IMG/VR virus record: IMGVR_UViG_2565956626_000015
Direction: 5' to 3' (one strand)
Length of the DNA stretch: 8,254 nt
DNA from: a virus
Lineage: Duplodnaviria; Heunggongvirae; Uroviricota; Caudoviricetes
The translations under genes were made by a program, and so were the position numbers. This document shows positions 165 through 8,254 of this stretch, piece by piece. Each line of letters begins with the position of its first letter. Position 1 is the first letter of the stretch. The notes beneath the pieces are model-generated. The model was not told the origin of the DNA. It did no database searches and was given only the letters and a program-made list of their open reading frames with translations.

Positions 165-203
165 TTGAGCGTATAACAGTGTTATACAGTGGTATACTGT
201 ATG
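165..203 (+). promoter_or_regulatory. Putative promoter/operator upstream of the Mnt-like gene: three tandem 10-bp repeats
   Basis: 171-180 GTATAACAGT, 181-190 GTTATACAGT, 191-200 GGTATACTGT give ACAGT/ACTGT pentamers at 176, 186, 196. TATAACAGTGTTATA is a dyad, and -10-like hexamers TATAAC (173-178) and TATACT (193-198) lie within it. The -35 element could not be placed confidently. Confidence 0.4.
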
Positions 204-219
204 GATATTACTCACTGAT

Positions 220-663
220 ATGGTCTTTGCAATGAGCAAATCTAATCTGGTCGCGTTCCGCATCCCATCTGAATTGCAGGATGAGTTTAATCGGTCTGTT
301 CTCGCTTCTGGAGGGGATAAAACCTCCTGGCTTGTTGATGCGATTCGCATGAAGCTGGGACAGCCGGAAAAGTCTATTGATTCACGAATGCTTGGGCTGG
401 TGGAGCGCATGGAAAAAGCCGCTGCGTCGCTTATTGCCGGAAAGCCGAACATCCCACCAAAGCCATATAACGAAACGGCAGTTATAAAGATCATTGCCGA
501 TACCATCCGACAGGGGTTTGATAATGGGCGTGTGATAGCGGAACGGCTCAATGAAGCAGGCTATCAAACAAAAGCTGGTAAAGCATGGGATAAAGACATT
601 TACAGCGCGTGGAAGCGTCAGGGAAGCAATGCTGAAAAGTTATCAGTGGCTCTAAGAATGTAG
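220..663 (+). CDS. DNA-binding protein with N-terminal Arc/Mnt-type RHH domain and C-terminal serine-recombinase-type DNA-binding motif (147 aa; alternative start ATG 232)
   Basis: N-terminus (LVAFRIPSELQDEF...GGDKTSWLVDAIRMKL) fits the RHH pattern beta-strand/helix/G-x-S-T/helix seen in P22 Arc and Mnt (FNFRMPMEV...GRSMNSELL). C-terminus (VIAERLNEAGYQTKAGKAWDKDIYSAWKRQG) resembles the conserved motif of the recombinase domain of large serine recombinases. No clear Shine-Dalgarno, so the start is uncertain. Confidence 0.65.
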   Translation: MVFAMSKSNLVAFRIPSELQDEFNRSVLASGGDKTSWLVDAIRMKLGQPEKSIDSRMLGLVERMEKAAASLIAGKPNIPPKPYNETAVIKIIADTIRQGFDNGRVIAERLNEAGYQTKAGKAWDKDIYSAWKRQGSNAEKLSVALRM

Positions 664-679
664 CCCTATATTTTGATTT

Positions 680-1057
680 TTAGACGTGCTTGGAGAACAG
701 GTAGCGTGCCATCACTAAAACAATGCCAAAGACTTCAGCGAGGGTTCCCCCCATAAATAGGTTTATAACGAAATCACTAAAATGGAGCAGTTTTGCTCCA
801 ATAAGGACAAAAATCCCATTCATAACTAATAGCTGGCCTATCAGAATGCCGATAAACCACCGAGCAAACATTTTTTTCAGTTTTGTGTCTGTTTTTAAAT
901 CTTTTGTTTTTGCACGCTGATGGGCTTTGGCTGGATCCTCATCATTTAGATGTGTGAGGGTTTTTGCTGATGGTGATGAGCCAGAGGCTGGTTCACCTCT
1001 GGCTTGTCTTGCCGCTTGCTTTAGTTTTTCAGATATAGCGTAAGATCTAGACGTCAT
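680..1057 (-). CDS. Small membrane protein, 125 aa: charged Lys/Pro/Ala-rich cytoplasmic N-terminal tail plus two predicted TM helices
   Basis: Hydrophobic segments WFIGILIGQLLVMNGIFVLIGA and INLFMGGTLAEVFGIVLVMARYLF follow a roughly 60-aa hydrophilic N-terminus. Its ATG lies 3 nt after the stop of the upstream peptidase gene (TGA-GTA-ATG), indicating translational coupling. Confidence 0.7.
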   Translation of the reverse strand: MTSRSYAISEKLKQAARQARGEPASGSSPSAKTLTHLNDEDPAKAHQRAKTKDLKTDTKLKKMFARWFIGILIGQLLVMNGIFVLIGAKLLHFSDFVINLFMGGTLAEVFGIVLVMARYLFSKHV

Positions 1058-1060
1058 TAC

Positions 1061-1549
1061 TCATCGAAGCCCTAAATTCTTTAGGCGATAACGTATAGCA
1101 TCATCGGATACACCAAAATAGGAAGCCATCATTACTGGTGCATATCCTGCATTGTTGAGGCGTCGAACCTCTTTTTCTGGCATGAGAAGACATGCTGCAA
1201 AGTTATTGGCGAATATTTCTTCGCTGTCTACACCTTGGCTTGCCAGTTTTCCGCGGTAATCAACAAACTCATATTCAAGTGGCTGACCGTTCTCAGTTCG
1301 TTTGACGTAATGCCCTAACTCATGCGCACACGTAAATCGTTTGCGCACGTTACTATCATTACGATTGAGTATGATTACTGGATCTTGTTCTGGCTCTTTC
1401 AGCAATGCGCCTGAAACATCATCATCAAGCGTGGTTTCAACAACATCCAACCCTAACTCATTGGCAATCCATACTGGATCAACCGGGAATTTCCTATCGC
1501 CCCAGATATCTTTCAAGAGGGCATGTGCAGATGTATTCGACATGTTCAC
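1061..1549 (-). CDS. ImmA/IrrE-family zinc metallopeptidase (Peptidase_M78/DUF955-like), 162 aa, standalone without HTH domain
   Basis: HExxH motif in CAHELGHYV with downstream FANNFAACLLMPEKEV, characteristic of ImmA/IrrE peptidases. Strong Shine-Dalgarno (AAGGAGGTGA) sits 5 nt upstream of the ATG at 1549. Confidence 0.85.
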   Translation of the reverse strand: MNMSNTSAHALLKDIWGDRKFPVDPVWIANELGLDVVETTLDDDVSGALLKEPEQDPVIILNRNDSNVRKRFTCAHELGHYVKRTENGQPLEYEFVDYRGKLASQGVDSEEIFANNFAACLLMPEKEVRRLNNAGYAPVMMASYFGVSDDAIRYRLKNLGLR

Positions 1550-2862: not shown

Positions 2863-4968
2863 TTATTGAGCTTCTTTTTGTGATGCCTGTGCGACTCTGG
2901 TGAGCGATTGTGTGACCGTACTGATCGCTCTGTCATATGCTGTGCTACCTTTTGGTGTATTTGCCAGACGTAACAAGGCATTTCGTATAACAGGGCTTTC
3001 GTATGCCTTCGCTGCTCCGCCTACGGCACCAGCAGCAGGAACAACAAACGCAGCTGTTTTTAGCATCCCCGCTAATACTGCTGCGTTTATGATGCCACCA
3101 CCAACTAACAATCCATAAAGCTGCTGACCATTTAAGTTTTGAACGTTCGCTTTTGCCGCGTGTCTTGTATCGTTGAGGTATTTAATAACGCCGTCCAGTT
3201 CCTTTCCATGTACGCCTTTAAAGAAAGTTGCTGATTGCTTCCTGTTCCGGTGTAACGCATTAATAAACTTCTCAACACTGATATTTCCAGACGGATCAGT
3301 CGCCTTATCTACAGCATTCTGAACTATGGCTGCTCGTGCGTTTTGCCTACCATTGTCATCCAGAAGCCTGTAAAGCTGAGAACGTTCTGATGGGCTTTGG
3401 CTAAAAACGAGTTTTGTTACATCCTCAGGCGTGGCCTTGCCGCTGGCTATTGCCTTTTGAACGCGCGTTCTTCCCATCATGTCATTGAATTTAGACCATG
3501 AGCGATCAACCCTTGCCATATTAATGGCTTCGTCTGCTCCAAGATTTTTGGCTACGGCTTTTTTCATATCCGCCGTATATGCCTTGTAGATAATATCGCT
3601 GGCTTTCTGGAGCGTATCTTTATCAACAGTGTCAGATGACGCCATAAATCGCTTTCGAAGATCGGTTCTGTTTTCCCTCGCCAGACGCAGGTCATTTGGT
3701 CCGCTGGTGATATCGTCTTTAAATTGCTGCAAGACTTTTACCGCGGCTCTATCCTGAGATTTGCCCGGGCGGCTTAACACGGCAATCTGATTGTCGATAG
3801 CTTTTACCGTGTTTGAGAGATCGACAGGGGTATCCCCCATAGCGTCAATTATGCGGTTATATCGCTTTCCTGCTGCCTCAATGAATTTTTGTTGCCCTTT
3901 AGTCGCAGATTCATAAAGCTGTTTATCAGAAATGCCACCCAGACCATCGCTAAATGTTCTGACTAAATTTTCTCGTGCTTGTTGTTGATTCAGCCGATTC
4001 TTACCGGTTCCAAAAAAAGGAACTCTTTCGCCTAATGTCTGAGCCTGACTCTGCATAAAGGTTTTATCTTTCAGCATGTCACTGGTCATTAACGGCAGAT
4101 TTCTTTCCGATGCAAAGTCGACAGCAGCCTTTGCTTCAGGCGACATATCACCACGAACAGCCCTCGAAACCGCACTCGCTGTATTTTCCAGCCCCTTACC
4201 AATACCACCAATGCCAGCAGAAATTACCGTTTGTAACGGATCAATATCTTCTCCACCAGCAAGGCTGGTGGCTCCCTGTAGTGCTAAATCTGTAGCTGCT
4301 GATTTTCCTATGGCACCAAGCACCGTTCCAGCCCTGCCCGCTGGTGTAAACGCCAACGCATTAGCAAGAAACGAAGTCAGGTCTTGCGGTGATAAACCCG
4401 GTTTGTTTAGGGCATAATCACCTGATGGCAGAGAAACGATAGTATTCCCCTTCTCATCCTGCCTTAATGTCGCCCCCATTCCCTGGAGAATCTTTTCCTG
4501 AGACGCGTCAGAGCCGAAAAGTTGAGACCATCCAGCCTTTAGGGCATCCATGCTTAGTGAGTTCAATTCTGGGGCAGAGGCGACATTTTGCAGTCTCTCC
4601 ATCTCTGGAGTCATTCGGCTTTCGCCTGTTATAGCATCCCGCATCGCAGCCCCAAGACTGGCTCCCTGTTCTGCTGAACGCTCAAGCCCCTCTCTTTGCT
4701 GAGTAGCTAACTTTGCATACCCTGACGCAAGAGAATTATCAGATGATGTATGTTGAATATTTTGAGTTGCTGATTGGGATCGGTCTATTTCATTCGTTGA
4801 TGGTAGTGGATAGGCAGCATAAAAAGCCTGCTTAGCCTGCTCTACACTTTCTCCGGCTTGCGGGGCCACGACTTCATTGAAGTATTGCTCCTGAGCCTGC
4901 GCTTTTTGTTCTGGTGCTAACGCCTGATACTGTGGAGAGGCGATAACATCTTTCCATGCTTTAGCCAT
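2863..4968 (-). CDS. Phage internal/ejection protein-like, 701 aa (P22 gp16-like by position and composition)
   Basis: Last gene of a four-gene coupled operon. Gln/Ala-rich with a Gly/Ala-rich hydrophobic C-terminal segment (LVGGGIINAAVLAGMLKTAAFVVPAAGAVGGAAKA). Its start overlaps the upstream stop (TAATG). Confidence 0.5.
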   Translation of the reverse strand: MAKAWKDVIASPQYQALAPEQKAQAQEQYFNEVVAPQAGESVEQAKQAFYAAYPLPSTNEIDRSQSATQNIQHTSSDNSLASGYAKLATQQREGLERSAEQGASLGAAMRDAITGESRMTPEMERLQNVASAPELNSLSMDALKAGWSQLFGSDASQEKILQGMGATLRQDEKGNTIVSLPSGDYALNKPGLSPQDLTSFLANALAFTPAGRAGTVLGAIGKSAATDLALQGATSLAGGEDIDPLQTVISAGIGGIGKGLENTASAVSRAVRGDMSPEAKAAVDFASERNLPLMTSDMLKDKTFMQSQAQTLGERVPFFGTGKNRLNQQQARENLVRTFSDGLGGISDKQLYESATKGQQKFIEAAGKRYNRIIDAMGDTPVDLSNTVKAIDNQIAVLSRPGKSQDRAAVKVLQQFKDDITSGPNDLRLARENRTDLRKRFMASSDTVDKDTLQKASDIIYKAYTADMKKAVAKNLGADEAINMARVDRSWSKFNDMMGRTRVQKAIASGKATPEDVTKLVFSQSPSERSQLYRLLDDNGRQNARAAIVQNAVDKATDPSGNISVEKFINALHRNRKQSATFFKGVHGKELDGVIKYLNDTRHAAKANVQNLNGQQLYGLLVGGGIINAAVLAGMLKTAAFVVPAAGAVGGAAKAYESPVIRNALLRLANTPKGSTAYDRAISTVTQSLTRVAQASQKEAQ

Positions 4969-6389
4969 TAATCACCCCATAGTGAAGAAAAGTTACTGCT
5001 GGCTGCTGGCTGTGATACCTGCTCAGATTGCGGCAATGTCTGCGACGAAGAAGAAGTTCCTCTGTCAACTGCTGAAATAACCCGCAAAGCATCATAAGCT
5101 CGACCAGAAGCAGCTTTCAGCGAATTGAACTGGTTTTCCATCTTCCGGCGCTTGGTATCAATGGTTTTTGTGGAGTCGCCAGGCTGAGGGAAATACATTT
5201 GATAATATTTTGACATTTCAGCAGGTACGATAGCTGCCCCTGTTTCCTGACGGAGTATTGCCATTATTGCGTCATTAGCATTAACAACGTATTGCTGCTC
5301 TGTTGGGCTGAGCGTTAAGTTAGCCAGCGTCCCATTACCCAAAGCATTATTAATGACCGCCACTCGCTGTGGGCTAAGCTGGTCTTTCAGTGTATCTATT
5401 GAATCAAGAGCATCCCTAACCCTGTATGCAAATCCAGCAGCTTTTTTAGCCCCTTCTGGCGACTTTTCCATGATCTTTTGGGCTGTTGGCAAAGCTATTG
5501 GACGAAATCCATCTCCAGATATTGGCTGGTTTAGTTTTCCCTGCTCTTCACTTCCGTCTGTGTAGTATTTTGTGACAGTGCCATCATCGTTTTCTCTAAC
5601 ACTCATTAATTTTTTGGCGTTTGTATTAATTCCAGCCGCTGCCGCAAATGCCGCCGCCCCCTCTGGATCCGCCTTTAACATTTGAGCGTACTGATTGTAA
5701 TTCTGCATTGCTGCTGTTGGTGCATATGCTGACGTTAACGCATTTGCTCGGCTAATATCCTGCCCTCTCGCCTGAAGTGCTTCGCCAGCCTGATTGCTGC
5801 GGATTGTCTCTGCCAACTTGCCACGCTCAATATCCCGACCTTCCATTTGATCTTTGATATCGAAATACTTCTCATGACCGAGAGAAAACAGTGCCATACT
5901 ACCAGCAAGCCGCTGGAACCACTGTGGATCATTAACATGCATTTCGGCAACAGACTCAGGAGAAATTCCCAAGCGACGCATTTCATCTTCGTTATCTGCT
6001 ATGAATTTTCCAAATGCCCCAGTTCCGAGCGAAGATGCGATTTGAGCACTAGTCGCAAGATGACCAATAGAATTTCTCTGGTCGTCATCAATAAAGCCCA
6101 TCCCTTTCTGAACGCTTTCAAATTCTTCTGGATACTCAGAAATAAGACTGCGCATTTTGTTTCTGTCTCCAGACTCAAAAGCCCCGGCATATGCTTTCTG
6201 AAACTCTGCTTTACGCTGTTGTTGACGTGCCTGCTGATTAATCTCAGCAACGCCTCTTAGCCCCTGTAGCGCCATTAAACCTACGTTTGGCTGCTGCTGA
6301 TACTGCACAGGCTGAGGAACGGAAGAACGAGGAGCATTATCATTTTGCGGTGCCATGCTAGGCAGCCCGCCAAGTTGCCATGTCGCCAT
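4968..6389 (-). CDS. Phage internal/ejection protein-like, 473 aa (P22 gp20-like by size and position)
   Basis: Overlaps both neighbours by TAATG start/stop. Gln-rich and largely helical in composition. Size is close to P22 gp20 as I recall it (about 471 aa). Confidence 0.5.
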   Translation of the reverse strand: MATWQLGGLPSMAPQNDNAPRSSVPQPVQYQQQPNVGLMALQGLRGVAEINQQARQQQRKAEFQKAYAGAFESGDRNKMRSLISEYPEEFESVQKGMGFIDDDQRNSIGHLATSAQIASSLGTGAFGKFIADNEDEMRRLGISPESVAEMHVNDPQWFQRLAGSMALFSLGHEKYFDIKDQMEGRDIERGKLAETIRSNQAGEALQARGQDISRANALTSAYAPTAAMQNYNQYAQMLKADPEGAAAFAAAAGINTNAKKLMSVRENDDGTVTKYYTDGSEEQGKLNQPISGDGFRPIALPTAQKIMEKSPEGAKKAAGFAYRVRDALDSIDTLKDQLSPQRVAVINNALGNGTLANLTLSPTEQQYVVNANDAIMAILRQETGAAIVPAEMSKYYQMYFPQPGDSTKTIDTKRRKMENQFNSLKAASGRAYDALRVISAVDRGTSSSSQTLPQSEQVSQPAASSNFSSLWGD

Positions 6390-7066
6390 TAGAATCCAAG
6401 CCCCCCAACAAGACCAATAAGCCCACCACCAATAGCGCCGGCCGCAGTACCTATTCCAGGAACAACGGAACCAAGTTGCGCACCCGCTAAAGCGCCTGAT
6501 GCTGCCCCACCAATACCACGCGCAAGACTGGATGGCTGCTGCGCCTGACCTGCACGAATAGCGCCAAGCCCCTGCAAGAGTTGCCCGGTATTATTGGCGT
6601 AGTTTTGCCCTGCTGTTGCCTGCCCTGATGCCGCATTCATCCCGACATTTAGCAGGTTTCCATAATTTTGCATTTGCCCACTAAGCCAATTGTTATAAAG
6701 CATGGGCGCAATGGAAGATAACTGGTTACTGGTAGCTGTTGAGCCAAGCCCCCCGGTAGCTTCTGCTGAGACAAGGTTCTGATAACGGGCCTGATCTGCC
6801 TGTGTTTTATATAAACCAGAACCAAAGAAATCATTCGCGGCTTTATTCTGCCCTTCCAGAGTCATCAGTCCTTGTAGTTGTTGTAAAGCAGGCAATCCGA
6901 CTTCTGCATACGGCTTGAGATTATTCATCACCGTATTCCACTGCTCGCGCTGCAAATCAATTGCCTGCTGCTGGGCCTTCGCCTGAGCTTTAGAGGCACC
7001 ACCATCACCGCCTTTTTCGTATACGGCACGATTGAGATGTTTATGAGCTATATGGGTAATTAACAT
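6389..7066 (-). CDS. Phage internal/ejection protein-like, 225 aa (P22 gp7-like by size and position), with Gly-zipper C-terminus
   Basis: C-terminus GGAASGALAGAQLGSVVPGIGTAAGAIGGGLIGLVGGLGF is a glycine-zipper-like membrane-active segment. Its start overlaps the stop of the upstream gene (ATGTTAA). Confidence 0.5.
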   Translation of the reverse strand: MLITHIAHKHLNRAVYEKGGDGGASKAQAKAQQQAIDLQREQWNTVMNNLKPYAEVGLPALQQLQGLMTLEGQNKAANDFFGSGLYKTQADQARYQNLVSAEATGGLGSTATSNQLSSIAPMLYNNWLSGQMQNYGNLLNVGMNAASGQATAGQNYANNTGQLLQGLGAIRAGQAQQPSSLARGIGGAASGALAGAQLGSVVPGIGTAAGAIGGGLIGLVGGLGF

Positions 7067-7521
7067 TCGCTGAGTTCCTTATATTGTTGCCGAGTTAACT
7101 GATAAAGCGTTACGCCAACTGGCTTACCACATCTGATATATGCATCGGCCAGGTGACCAACACGGGTAGCGCCAAGCAAACGGATAATTGCCCGTCCGTA
7201 TTTGGTGGTGTCAGGAACCATGGTAATGCTGTTAAGGAATGGTGAGTTTTCGAGAAGCCATTTGCAGAATAATCGATGCCCTTGCAGTGCATATTCACCA
7301 CGGAATCCGGGGTCGTACACCGCATGGCATTCAACAACGCTATGCCAGAAGTTACGCACTTCATGAACGCCAGCCAGCACTAATCCTTCGTAGATGCCGA
7401 GATATACCGCATCAGGCTTGATGTAGTACGTGTGCCCCGGCTCAACAATATTTTCGGTATTGCCTGGCTCGTTAAGAAAGGCCTGTAATCGCACAGGGTT
7501 ATCAATAAATTTTAGTTCCAT
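7060..7521 (-). CDS. Hypothetical protein, 153 aa; positional equivalent of P22 gene 14, or alternatively an SOS-controlled antirepressor-like protein
   Basis: ORF is translationally coupled to the downstream 225-aa gene and starts 16 bp after the Arc-like ORF. No recognisable catalytic motif. Confidence 0.6.
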   Translation of the reverse strand: MELKFIDNPVRLQAFLNEPGNTENIVEPGHTYYIKPDAVYLGIYEGLVLAGVHEVRNFWHSVVECHAVYDPGFRGEYALQGHRLFCKWLLENSPFLNSITMVPDTTKYGRAIIRLLGATRVGHLADAYIRCGKPVGVTLYQLTRQQYKELSEC

Positions 7522-7537
7522 GCGATGCCATCCATTT

Positions 7538-7699
7538 TCACATACAGCCTGCCAGCGCCTTATCTATTAACCCTCGTGCAATTTCATGCAGAGTTGGCGC
7601 TACTCCAATTCCTGATTTTTTACGCTGCTCTTCCTGAATTTTCTTTATCGCTTCCATTTGCTTCTCACTTATCAATACCGGCTTTACTGAAATAGCCAT
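7538..7699 (-). CDS. Small Arc/CopG-type RHH DNA-binding protein, 53 aa (MAISVKPVLISEKQMEAIKKIQEEQRKKSGIGVAPTLHEIARGLIDKALAGCM)
   Basis: Not in the supplied ORF track (below its length cutoff); found by hand translation of the minus strand. Shine-Dalgarno AAGGGGG lies 4 nt before the ATG. The beta-strand/helix/G-x-x/helix layout is typical of RHH repressors. Confidence 0.55.
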   Translation of the reverse strand: MAISVKPVLISEKQMEAIKKIQEEQRKKSGIGVAPTLHEIARGLIDKALAGCM

Positions 7700-7712: not shown

Positions 7713-7738
7713 AACTGTATAAAACAACAGTTATTATA
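7713..7738 (-). promoter_or_regulatory. LexA (SOS) box-like site CTGT-N8-ACAG abutting a perfect -10 TATAAT, upstream of the Arc-like ORF
   Basis: AACTGTATAAAACAACAGTT (7713-7732) matches the CTGT-N8-ACAG core of the E. coli LexA box consensus TACTGTATATATATACAGTA. The minus-strand TATAAT (complement of 7733-7738) is adjacent, so the box would cover the transcription start. Confidence 0.5.
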
Positions 7739-8147: not shown

Positions 8148-8188
8148 GTTGGTTCAAAATACCGTGTTGTTGGTTCAGTGTTGGTTCA
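8148..8188 (-). repeat. Iteron array, right end: GTTGGTTCA at 8148-8156, 8169-8177, 8180-8188
   Basis: Three exact copies of the reverse-complement iteron. Copy 8180-8188 mirrors left copy 67-75 exactly; the other two are shifted by about one helical turn relative to the left arm. Confidence 0.8.
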
Positions 8189-8220
8189 ATAAAAAGAATA
8201 AAATCCTTATAAAACAATAC

Positions 8221-8254
8221 TCTTTACAAATTGAACCAACTGAACCAACTGAAC
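8221..8254. repeat. Right terminal inverted repeat, perfect 34-bp partner of 1-34
   Basis: 8221-8254 (TCTTTACAAATTGAACCAACTGAACCAACTGAAC) is the reverse complement of 1-34, with two contiguous TGAACCAAC units (8232-8240, 8241-8249) plus a partial TGAAC. Confidence 0.9.

Follow-up and report, generated by a model that had tools for sequence, protein, structure and literature searches.

RHH143, a probable autoregulatory ribbon-helix-helix repressor with an added C-terminal domain on an EcCIMP1-like chromosomal island

The stretch of DNA analysed (the window) comprises 8,254 nucleotides (nt) from the IMG/VR virus record IMGVR_UViG_2565956626_000015 (Caudoviricetes). Near its left end lies a gene for a small protein, named RHH143 here, preceded by two short DNA boxes that overlap its promoter region. 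The plus-strand open reading frame (ORF) at 220-663 was confirmed. Its true start was placed at the ATG at 232 and not at 220 because MSKS, the conserved N-terminus of the family in an alignment of 35 homologues, falls on that ATG; the RefSeq entry WP_024180635.1 ('hypothetical protein') likewise begins at 232. The coding sequence runs from 232 to 663 (+) with the stop codon at 661-663, and the product is 143 amino acids (aa) long. The ratio of nonsynonymous to synonymous substitution rates (dN/dS) was 0.07-0.14 and synonymous sites were saturated, which marks it as a real gene under purifying selection. The minus-strand ORFs overlapping it (147-551 and 382-567) had no such support.

Homologues formed 374 clusters at 90% identity, all in Enterobacterales, with 59-80% identity between genera. 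Although the protein is annotated as 'hypothetical' nearly everywhere, with one mistaken 'integrase', 361 of the 5426 complete E. coli genomes carried the gene (annotated 'hypothetical protein' in every one) and the family is found in satellites of about 25 genera of the order. No Pfam or NCBIfam model covers the family. A PHROGs search with RHH143 returned only phrog_30270, of unknown function (E = 2.6e-4), and tblastn against 50,697 phage records returned no homologue. A profile search seeded with distant relatives left the family at about 412 clusters, and a HMMER scan of 1.84 billion representatives gave just 65 matches, fragments for the most part.

The N-terminal domain (aa 1-45; 232-366, +) was assigned to the ribbon-helix-helix (RHH) fold. 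Its predicted secondary structure consists of a strand at aa 4-11 (SNLVAFRI), helix A at 13-26, a turn G27-x-D29 and helix B at 30-42, so the strand-helix-turn-helix layout of about 45 residues that defines the superfamily is present; the scores stayed below the gathering threshold of the curated profiles. Twenty N-termini were aligned by hhalign with Arc/Mnt sequences, comprising Arc-family proteins taken from the record of phage Kapi1 and the P22 Arc and Mnt sequences, and matched in register over 45 columns (P = 2.7e-4, 18% identity). The alignment sets L6, A8 and R10 on Arc Q9, N11 and R13, which are base-contacting residues, and G27-G28-D29 on Arc G30-R31-S32. AlphaFold2 (AF2), run with the 35-sequence alignment, gave a mean predicted local distance difference test score (pLDDT) of 74 and placed helices at 13-26 and 30-42 with moderate confidence, as may be expected because a putative obligate dimer was modelled as a monomer. 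Foldseek listed Arc, CopG, NikA and the RHH antitoxins AtaR, TacA and VapB with non-significant E-values, and returned no match at E ≤ 0.001 against PDB and BFVD. Distant relatives scored 19.1 bits with RHH_1 (cut-off 20.5) and matched NikA-like (E = 5e-4) and TacA1 models (within 5e-4 to 7e-3). The initial annotation, made by eye from the sequence, had described an Mnt/Arc-like RHH N-terminus on a protein about twice the length of Mnt, and had proposed an AlphaFold model as a check; profile alignment and model agree with the RHH assignment, and at 143 against about 82 aa the length ratio is 1.7.

RHH143 could instead be an RHH partner protein, namely a type II antitoxin, a ParG/omega centromere binder, a NikA/TraY relaxosome factor or a CopG copy-number repressor. 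The presence of AtaR, TacA, VapB and NikA among the best Foldseek matches is in keeping with this, as are the NikA-like and TacA1 Pfam matches of the distant relatives (E = 5e-4 to 7e-3) and the frequent position of the gene beside a replication origin. These matches, however, cover the shared RHH fold and not the partner-binding parts. The genes 3' of RHH143 vary between loci and no neighbouring gene is conserved, be it a toxin, a ParA-type ATPase or a relaxase, so that RHH143 is not half of such a pair; nor does it form an operon with the primase, on whose side of the island the operator was not found. A partnered role of this kind is therefore very unlikely.

The RHH domain is followed by a central amphipathic helix (aa 52-68, RMLGLVERMEKAAASLI; 385-435, +), in which R52, L56, V57, E58, R59, M60, E61, A63, A64 and L67 were invariant in the 35 sequences. 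AF2 modelled aa 52-68 as a helix at low pLDDT, as expected of a helix that would pack only in an oligomer; by analogy with the C-terminal helix of Mnt, it may pair two dimers. Beyond it, aa 76-143 (457-660, +) form a helix-turn-helix (HTH)-like domain, modelled by AF2 at pLDDT 89-95, with the near-invariant core DNGR-IAER-NEAGYQTK-GKAWDKDIYSAWKR. This core hardly changes across operator classes, primase types and host genera.

The motif I-A-x-x-L-N-x-x-G-x-x-T-x-x-G-x-x-W of this domain spans a helix, hairpin, helix element, and it had been taken initially as a motif typical of the recombinase domain of large serine recombinases. Pfam matches at aa 81-126 were sub-threshold: HTH_62 (PF20552) gave E = 0.04 (13.7 bits, cut-off 21.1) and Recombinase (PF07508) gave E = 0.08 (14.4 bits, cut-off 27). 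Across the family, a weak HTH_62 match was found in 27 of 35 members and a weak Recombinase match in 14 of 35, at 13-17 bits and so below both cut-offs. In the distant relatives, which are 30-38% identical, the three-part architecture recurs and I102, N107 and W119 are retained; their Recombinase matches were slightly better (E = 0.006 and 0.014). PDB sequence searches with full-length and C-terminal profiles returned nothing meaningful, the C-terminal domain having no match at E ≤ 10; when compared with Bxb1 integrase by hhalign, the C-terminal profile gave no match (P = 0.22), and structural matches to the domain were generic HTH domains. No resolvase catalytic domain with serine nucleophile, zinc ribbon or coiled coil was found in the 143 aa. 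The likeness to HTH_62 and to the N-terminal part of PF07508 lies in the motif of the helix, hairpin, helix element, and the parts that accompany it in recombinases are missing; as a motif the resemblance appears genuine, and membership of the recombinase domain is not established.

Upstream of the gene, the pentamers ACAGT at 176, ACAGT at 186 and ACTGT at 196 are present as first reported, when they were taken as three tandem 10-bp operator repeats. Tandem Repeats Finder returned an array at 171-197 (period 10, 2.6 copies, score 38), and a repeat search showed 171-187 to be a palindrome with two perfectly matching 8-nt arms, GTATAACA-g-TGTTATAC. Nine arrays scoring at least 30 occur in the window, so the 171-197 array alone is unremarkable, and the significance of the operator comes from its conservation among loci rather than from the repeat score. 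Loci were fetched by protein similarity with one genome per species, and of the 48 obtained, the 42 with an intact N-terminus were used. All 42 have, 57-63 nt ahead of the ATG, a pair of 7-bp boxes that start 10 bp from one another, and in nearly all of them a TGnTAnAAT-like element follows directly, about 30 nt before the ATG. The two-box layout persists even though the synonymous sites of the gene are saturated.

Box 1 of the window (GTATAAC, 171-177, +) coincides with the -35 of the promoter predicted for RHH143 and belongs to one arm of the palindrome. Box 2 (GTTATAC, 181-187, +), 10 bp from box 1, lies within the promoter spacer. The conserved element after the boxes corresponds to the extended -10 TGgTATACT at 190-198 (+; hexamer TATACT at 193-198). 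Because this element is an extended -10, the third of the three repeats (unit 191-200) is read as the -10 hexamer plus its upstream TG, which leaves two conserved repeat units. The hexamer differs in its third base between the operator classes (see below), which makes a degenerate third box possible over the -10 (GTATACT, 192-198), 11 bp away from box 2. A single copy of the 18-bp operator site was found in the window, against 0.07 expected, and likewise a single copy in the island as a whole (locus L001). With up to 3 mismatches allowed, no further operator was found in the island besides that at the RHH143 promoter, and none in the helper-type phage Kapi1; neither sequence shows a further DNA site for the RHH head. 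Of the 80 exact operator matches in IMG/VR, 48 precede an RHH143 gene, and the remainder correspond to about the number expected by chance by our rough estimate.

The operators of the 42 loci fall into two classes, each matched to one type of β-strand. In class A (22 of 22 loci), the operator GTATAAC..GTTATAC (GTATAACAnnGTTATAC) goes with the strand S[NT]L[VI]AFR, and in class B (20 of 20), the operator GTCTTAC..GTCTTAC (GTCTTACnnnGTCTTAC), a direct repeat and not a palindrome, goes with S[LI]SVTFR. None of the 42 loci is an exception: wherever residues 5, 6 and 8 have switched, the inner bases of the two boxes have switched as well. In the 35-sequence alignment, V7 and F9, which face inward, and R10, which faces outward, are invariant. 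The third base of the -10 hexamer is T or C in all 22 class A loci and A in all 20 class B loci. A neighbour-joining tree was built on residues 13-130, leaving out the strand. Class B was nested in a paraphyletic class A, and one class A locus (L009) sat within class B beside L028, so that strand and operator must have switched jointly on at least two independent occasions. Indirectly, this points to the outward-facing strand residues as those that read DNA. A relative at 40% identity (P0170, strand SNFIAFR) has GATAACAGTGTTATC upstream of its gene, which shares the class A core ATAACAGTGTTAT. The pairing of N-L-x-A with GTATAAC/GTTATAC and of L-S-x-T with GTCTTAC would represent a natural two-state RHH recognition code that can be tested directly and could supply an orthogonal repressor-operator pair for engineering.

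The region upstream of the P0170 gene (L134, 7800-7930) holds many GATAAC/GTTATC boxes, with three direct copies 10-11 bp apart and two palindromes, and this array is larger than that of the E. coli family. The P0170 gene adjoins tail genes (tape-measure protein) of a phage-like element.

Given the conserved operator layout and its co-variation with the strand, the best reading of RHH143 is a negative autoregulator of the Arc/Mnt/CopG kind. We consider it probable, with good though not full confidence, that it is a solitary, negatively autoregulated RHH repressor on an EcCIMP1-like phage-inducible chromosomal island (PICI). It would then be a conserved and previously unannotated RHH autoregulator with an added HTH-like domain, on a known kind of satellite. 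Two monomers would pair their N-terminal β-strands into a two-stranded sheet that reads one 7-bp GT-nnn-AC box, its outer G:C pairs being read by the invariant Arg10 of each strand and its inner triplet by residues 5, 6 and 8. The boxes at 171-177 and 181-187 are separated by one helical turn and would each take one such dimer, both on the same face of the DNA, and the central helix at aa 52-68 would probably join them into a tetramer as in Mnt; this stoichiometry is one we infer. The bound boxes cover the -35 and the spacer of the extended -10 promoter, so occupancy would shut out RNA polymerase, giving repression rather than activation, and would fix the protein level in the integrated island. 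The C-terminal domain is near-invariant over operator class, primase type and host genus, so its target should be shared by all carriers; extra operator DNA contacts or a conserved partner protein of the host or helper phage are the likely options.

Several points weigh against this reading. The hhalign probability for the Arc/Mnt match was just 42%, no Pfam or NCBIfam RHH model matched the E. coli protein at E ≤ 1, and the AF2 model is a monomer without the β-sheet dimer, its N-terminal half at pLDDT 52-73. The promoter is itself a prediction: a sigma-70 consensus scan called none here, because the -35 is poor. Extended -10 promoters work without a good -35. No obvious Shine-Dalgarno sequence precedes 232 in E. 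coli. A regulator that controls no gene but its own would have no evident value for the island.

The window was 99.8% identical to a stretch found in 65 complete E. coli chromosomes. In NZ_CP024245 it lies within an EcCIMP1-like PICI of about 15 kb between yicC and dinD, whose order from the yicC side, in window orientation, is a tyrosine integrase, a hypothetical gene, an AlpA-like HTH gene, a hypothetical gene, AntA/B, DUF4222, the TOPRIM/DUF927 primase and then the window, with iterons adjoining the primase; a PerC-family gene lies just outside the left edge of the window. This is the gene content and layout of a PICI, with integrase, AlpA-family regulator, primase with iteron origin, and no capsid, tail or lysis genes. 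The window is accordingly taken as an inner piece of an EcCIMP1-like PICI and not as an element of its own. Kapi1, a P22-like phage, excises and transduces EcCIMP1, a PICI of E. coli MP1 (Pick et al. 2025, PMC11773190). Experiments have demonstrated dependence on a helper phage for excision, replication and packaging solely for EcCIMP1 with Kapi1, and the island described here is assigned as a PICI by its genes. The two islands, near-identical in their core, have in common the primase (99.6% identity over 688 aa), AntA/B (97%), DUF4222 (100%), a 53-aa protein (100%), DUF2824 (98%) and a gp7-like protein (99%), as well as gp20- and gp16-like genes, a PerC-family gene and two inverted origin copies. 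They differ in integration site, tRNA-Thr for EcCIMP1 and beside yicC here, and EcCIMP1 has no RHH143 homologue: in the same slot, to the right of the left iteron cluster and on the opposite strand, it carries alpA_1. The latter encodes an Xis-like protein reported to aid helper excision (PMC11773190).

The iterons at the two ends of the window form cluster A (1-126, starting about 15 nt before the window) and cluster B (8149-8254). Each cluster is about 130 bp long, and in it three copies of GTTGGTTC, spaced 9 bp, are separated by an AT-rich stretch from three copies of GAACCAAC, spaced 21 bp; cluster B repeats cluster A in reverse complement, the first 45 nt or so being identical. Published PICI origins directly adjoin the primase gene on its 3' side and have an AT-rich stretch between two sets of iterons (PMC6092414). 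Both clusters fit this layout, and cluster B is placed exactly 3' of the TOPRIM/DUF927 primase gene. They are consequently read as duplicated inverted PICI origins, cluster A being the inverted second copy, and not as element ends.

The initial annotation had proposed RHH143 as the recognition factor for these terminal iterons: it would bind the operator by its RHH domain and the flanking iterons by its recombinase-like motif, and so mark the ends of a mobile element. The C-terminal domain is indeed HTH-like. In the window, 45 nt separate the operator from the cluster upstream of it, and 18 of the 42 loci, from several genera, have a cluster no more than 700 nt upstream of the gene. In the other 24, however, no iteron cluster lies near the gene, and EcCIMP1 carries both clusters yet no RHH143 gene. 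The iterons moreover differ with the primase allele. Four iteron sequences, GAACCAAC, GACACACT (L026, L038), CCGTTATC (eight tandem 8-bp units in L019) and TTATCCCA (L036, L043), follow four primase alleles, the diverged primases being 45-53% identical, whereas the C-terminal core of RHH143 is near-invariant; L036 and L038 have different iterons and an RHH143 identical over the 56 residues compared. Since the iterons follow the primase allele while the C-terminal core stays constant, they belong to the primase and not to RHH143. Recognition of element ends by RHH143 is thus highly improbable and the claim was dropped. The picture of the locus changes with it: the 'terminal iterons' are PICI origins that bracket cargo and not the ends of a new mobile element, and the switches of iteron and primase allele provide a natural set of matched initiator-origin pairs.

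The origin copies lie at 11985-12125 and 20149-20262 in L001 and at 3036-3149 and 11576-11689 in L132, one directly 3' of the primase and the other 8 kb off, with variable cargo between them. The same pair was found in EcCIMP1 and in loci of Serratia, Rosenbergiella, Cedecea, Pantoea and Chimaeribacter, and in some loci (L007, L027, L031, L033 and L042) both copies lie together beside the primase. Phage P4 has two α-bound sites, ori and crr, which the two origin copies of the island recall. In Pantoea coffeiphila (L006, 9712-12305), a unit of origin iteron cluster, operator and RHH143 gene is repeated in tandem with a period of 1251 bp, giving two complete gene copies plus a third iteron cluster.

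RHH143 might also act more widely, as a resident master repressor or sensor like Stl of Staphylococcus aureus pathogenicity islands (SaPI), with the C-terminal domain docking a helper-phage protein that lifts repression. It is unclear if Gram-negative PICIs possess a global repressor at all (PMC6092414), and such a role would suit the orientation of the gene, which runs counter to the other island genes and has a self-limited promoter that looks constitutive. It would also suit a C-terminal domain that is near-invariant whatever the element type, and a distant relative that is similarly placed in another satellite, one with a D5-type primase. Against these stand the distribution of the operator, which is found in the island (≤3 mismatches) solely before RHH143 itself and not before the gene of the 53-aa protein (s53), whose upstream motif is unchanged between operator classes; the distance of the RHH143 gene from alpA and int; and the absence of the gene from EcCIMP1, the prototype mobilised by experiment. 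The single operator and the missing gene in EcCIMP1 make a master repressor unlikely. The slot shared by RHH143 and alpA_1 may, as a speculation, serve factors acting beyond the island, given alpA_1 in EcCIMP1 and a 38%-identical relative beside the single-stranded DNA-binding protein (SSB) and D5-type primase genes of another satellite.

As a probable autoregulator, RHH143 is close to P22 Mnt and Arc. Strand, helix, G-x-(N-cap) turn and second helix are in register, short operator boxes lie about one helical turn apart and overlap a promoter, and dimers could be paired by the helix that follows the RHH domain, as they are by the C-terminal helix in Mnt; the RHH143 gene also lies just past P22-type ejection-protein genes, in the general region of P22 immI. 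It differs in its low identity (18% in the profile alignment, with no Pfam Arc or RHH match), in the extra 68-residue HTH-like domain of the 143-aa protein and in its setting on a satellite, with no adjacent arc or ant genes and a homologue in no deposited phage genome. Orthology with Mnt of immI was considered and rejected on the identity and the missing arc/ant neighbours, and the Arc-family genes of Kapi1 encode different proteins. The RHH143 operator is, we presume, unrelated to that of Mnt. Regulators of the CopG/RepA type are likewise small RHH proteins that bind repeats over the -35 of their own promoter next to a replicon, but RHH143 is three times longer, is not co-transcribed with a replication gene and has no operator on the primase side.

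The remainder of the window is largely cargo. M78 (ImmA/IrrE-family) metallopeptidase (162 aa, Pfam E = 1e-19) and 125-aa membrane protein (phrog_5346) genes at 680-1549 (-) converge on the 3' end of RHH143, with no Xre-type partner visible; among the loci examined the pair is confined to the E. coli island, barring an M78 match in L004. Both are candidate accessory or defence genes. The following 0.9 kb or so (1550-2424) holds no convincing ORF or Rfam match and may be the remnant of a degraded minus-strand gene; Rfam at gathering thresholds gave no match anywhere in the window. Most of the window is occupied by the 'DNA transfer' genes at 2863-7521 (-), which are P22-type DUF2824 (gp14-like), gp7-, gp20- and gp16-like ejection genes in a satellite without capsid or tail genes, and which match Kapi1 and other Lederbergvirus. 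Such genes were already noted for EcCIMP1 (PMC11773190). The gp16-like gene is a pseudogene in RefSeq, yet its ORF of 701 aa is open in the window.

Beside the primase-side origin, s53 (7541-7699, -) encodes the 53-aa protein, which is conserved in many genera, identical in EcCIMP1, and RHH-like by eye with no family match. The sequence before this gene (7715-7738) was considered as an RHH143 operator and rejected, being constant across operator classes. Its promoter has TATAAT on the minus strand (the reverse complement of 7733-7738) followed by CTGT-N8-ACAG at 7715-7730, which looks like a LexA-type box; in most other genera, CTG-N9-CAG is found at this promoter.

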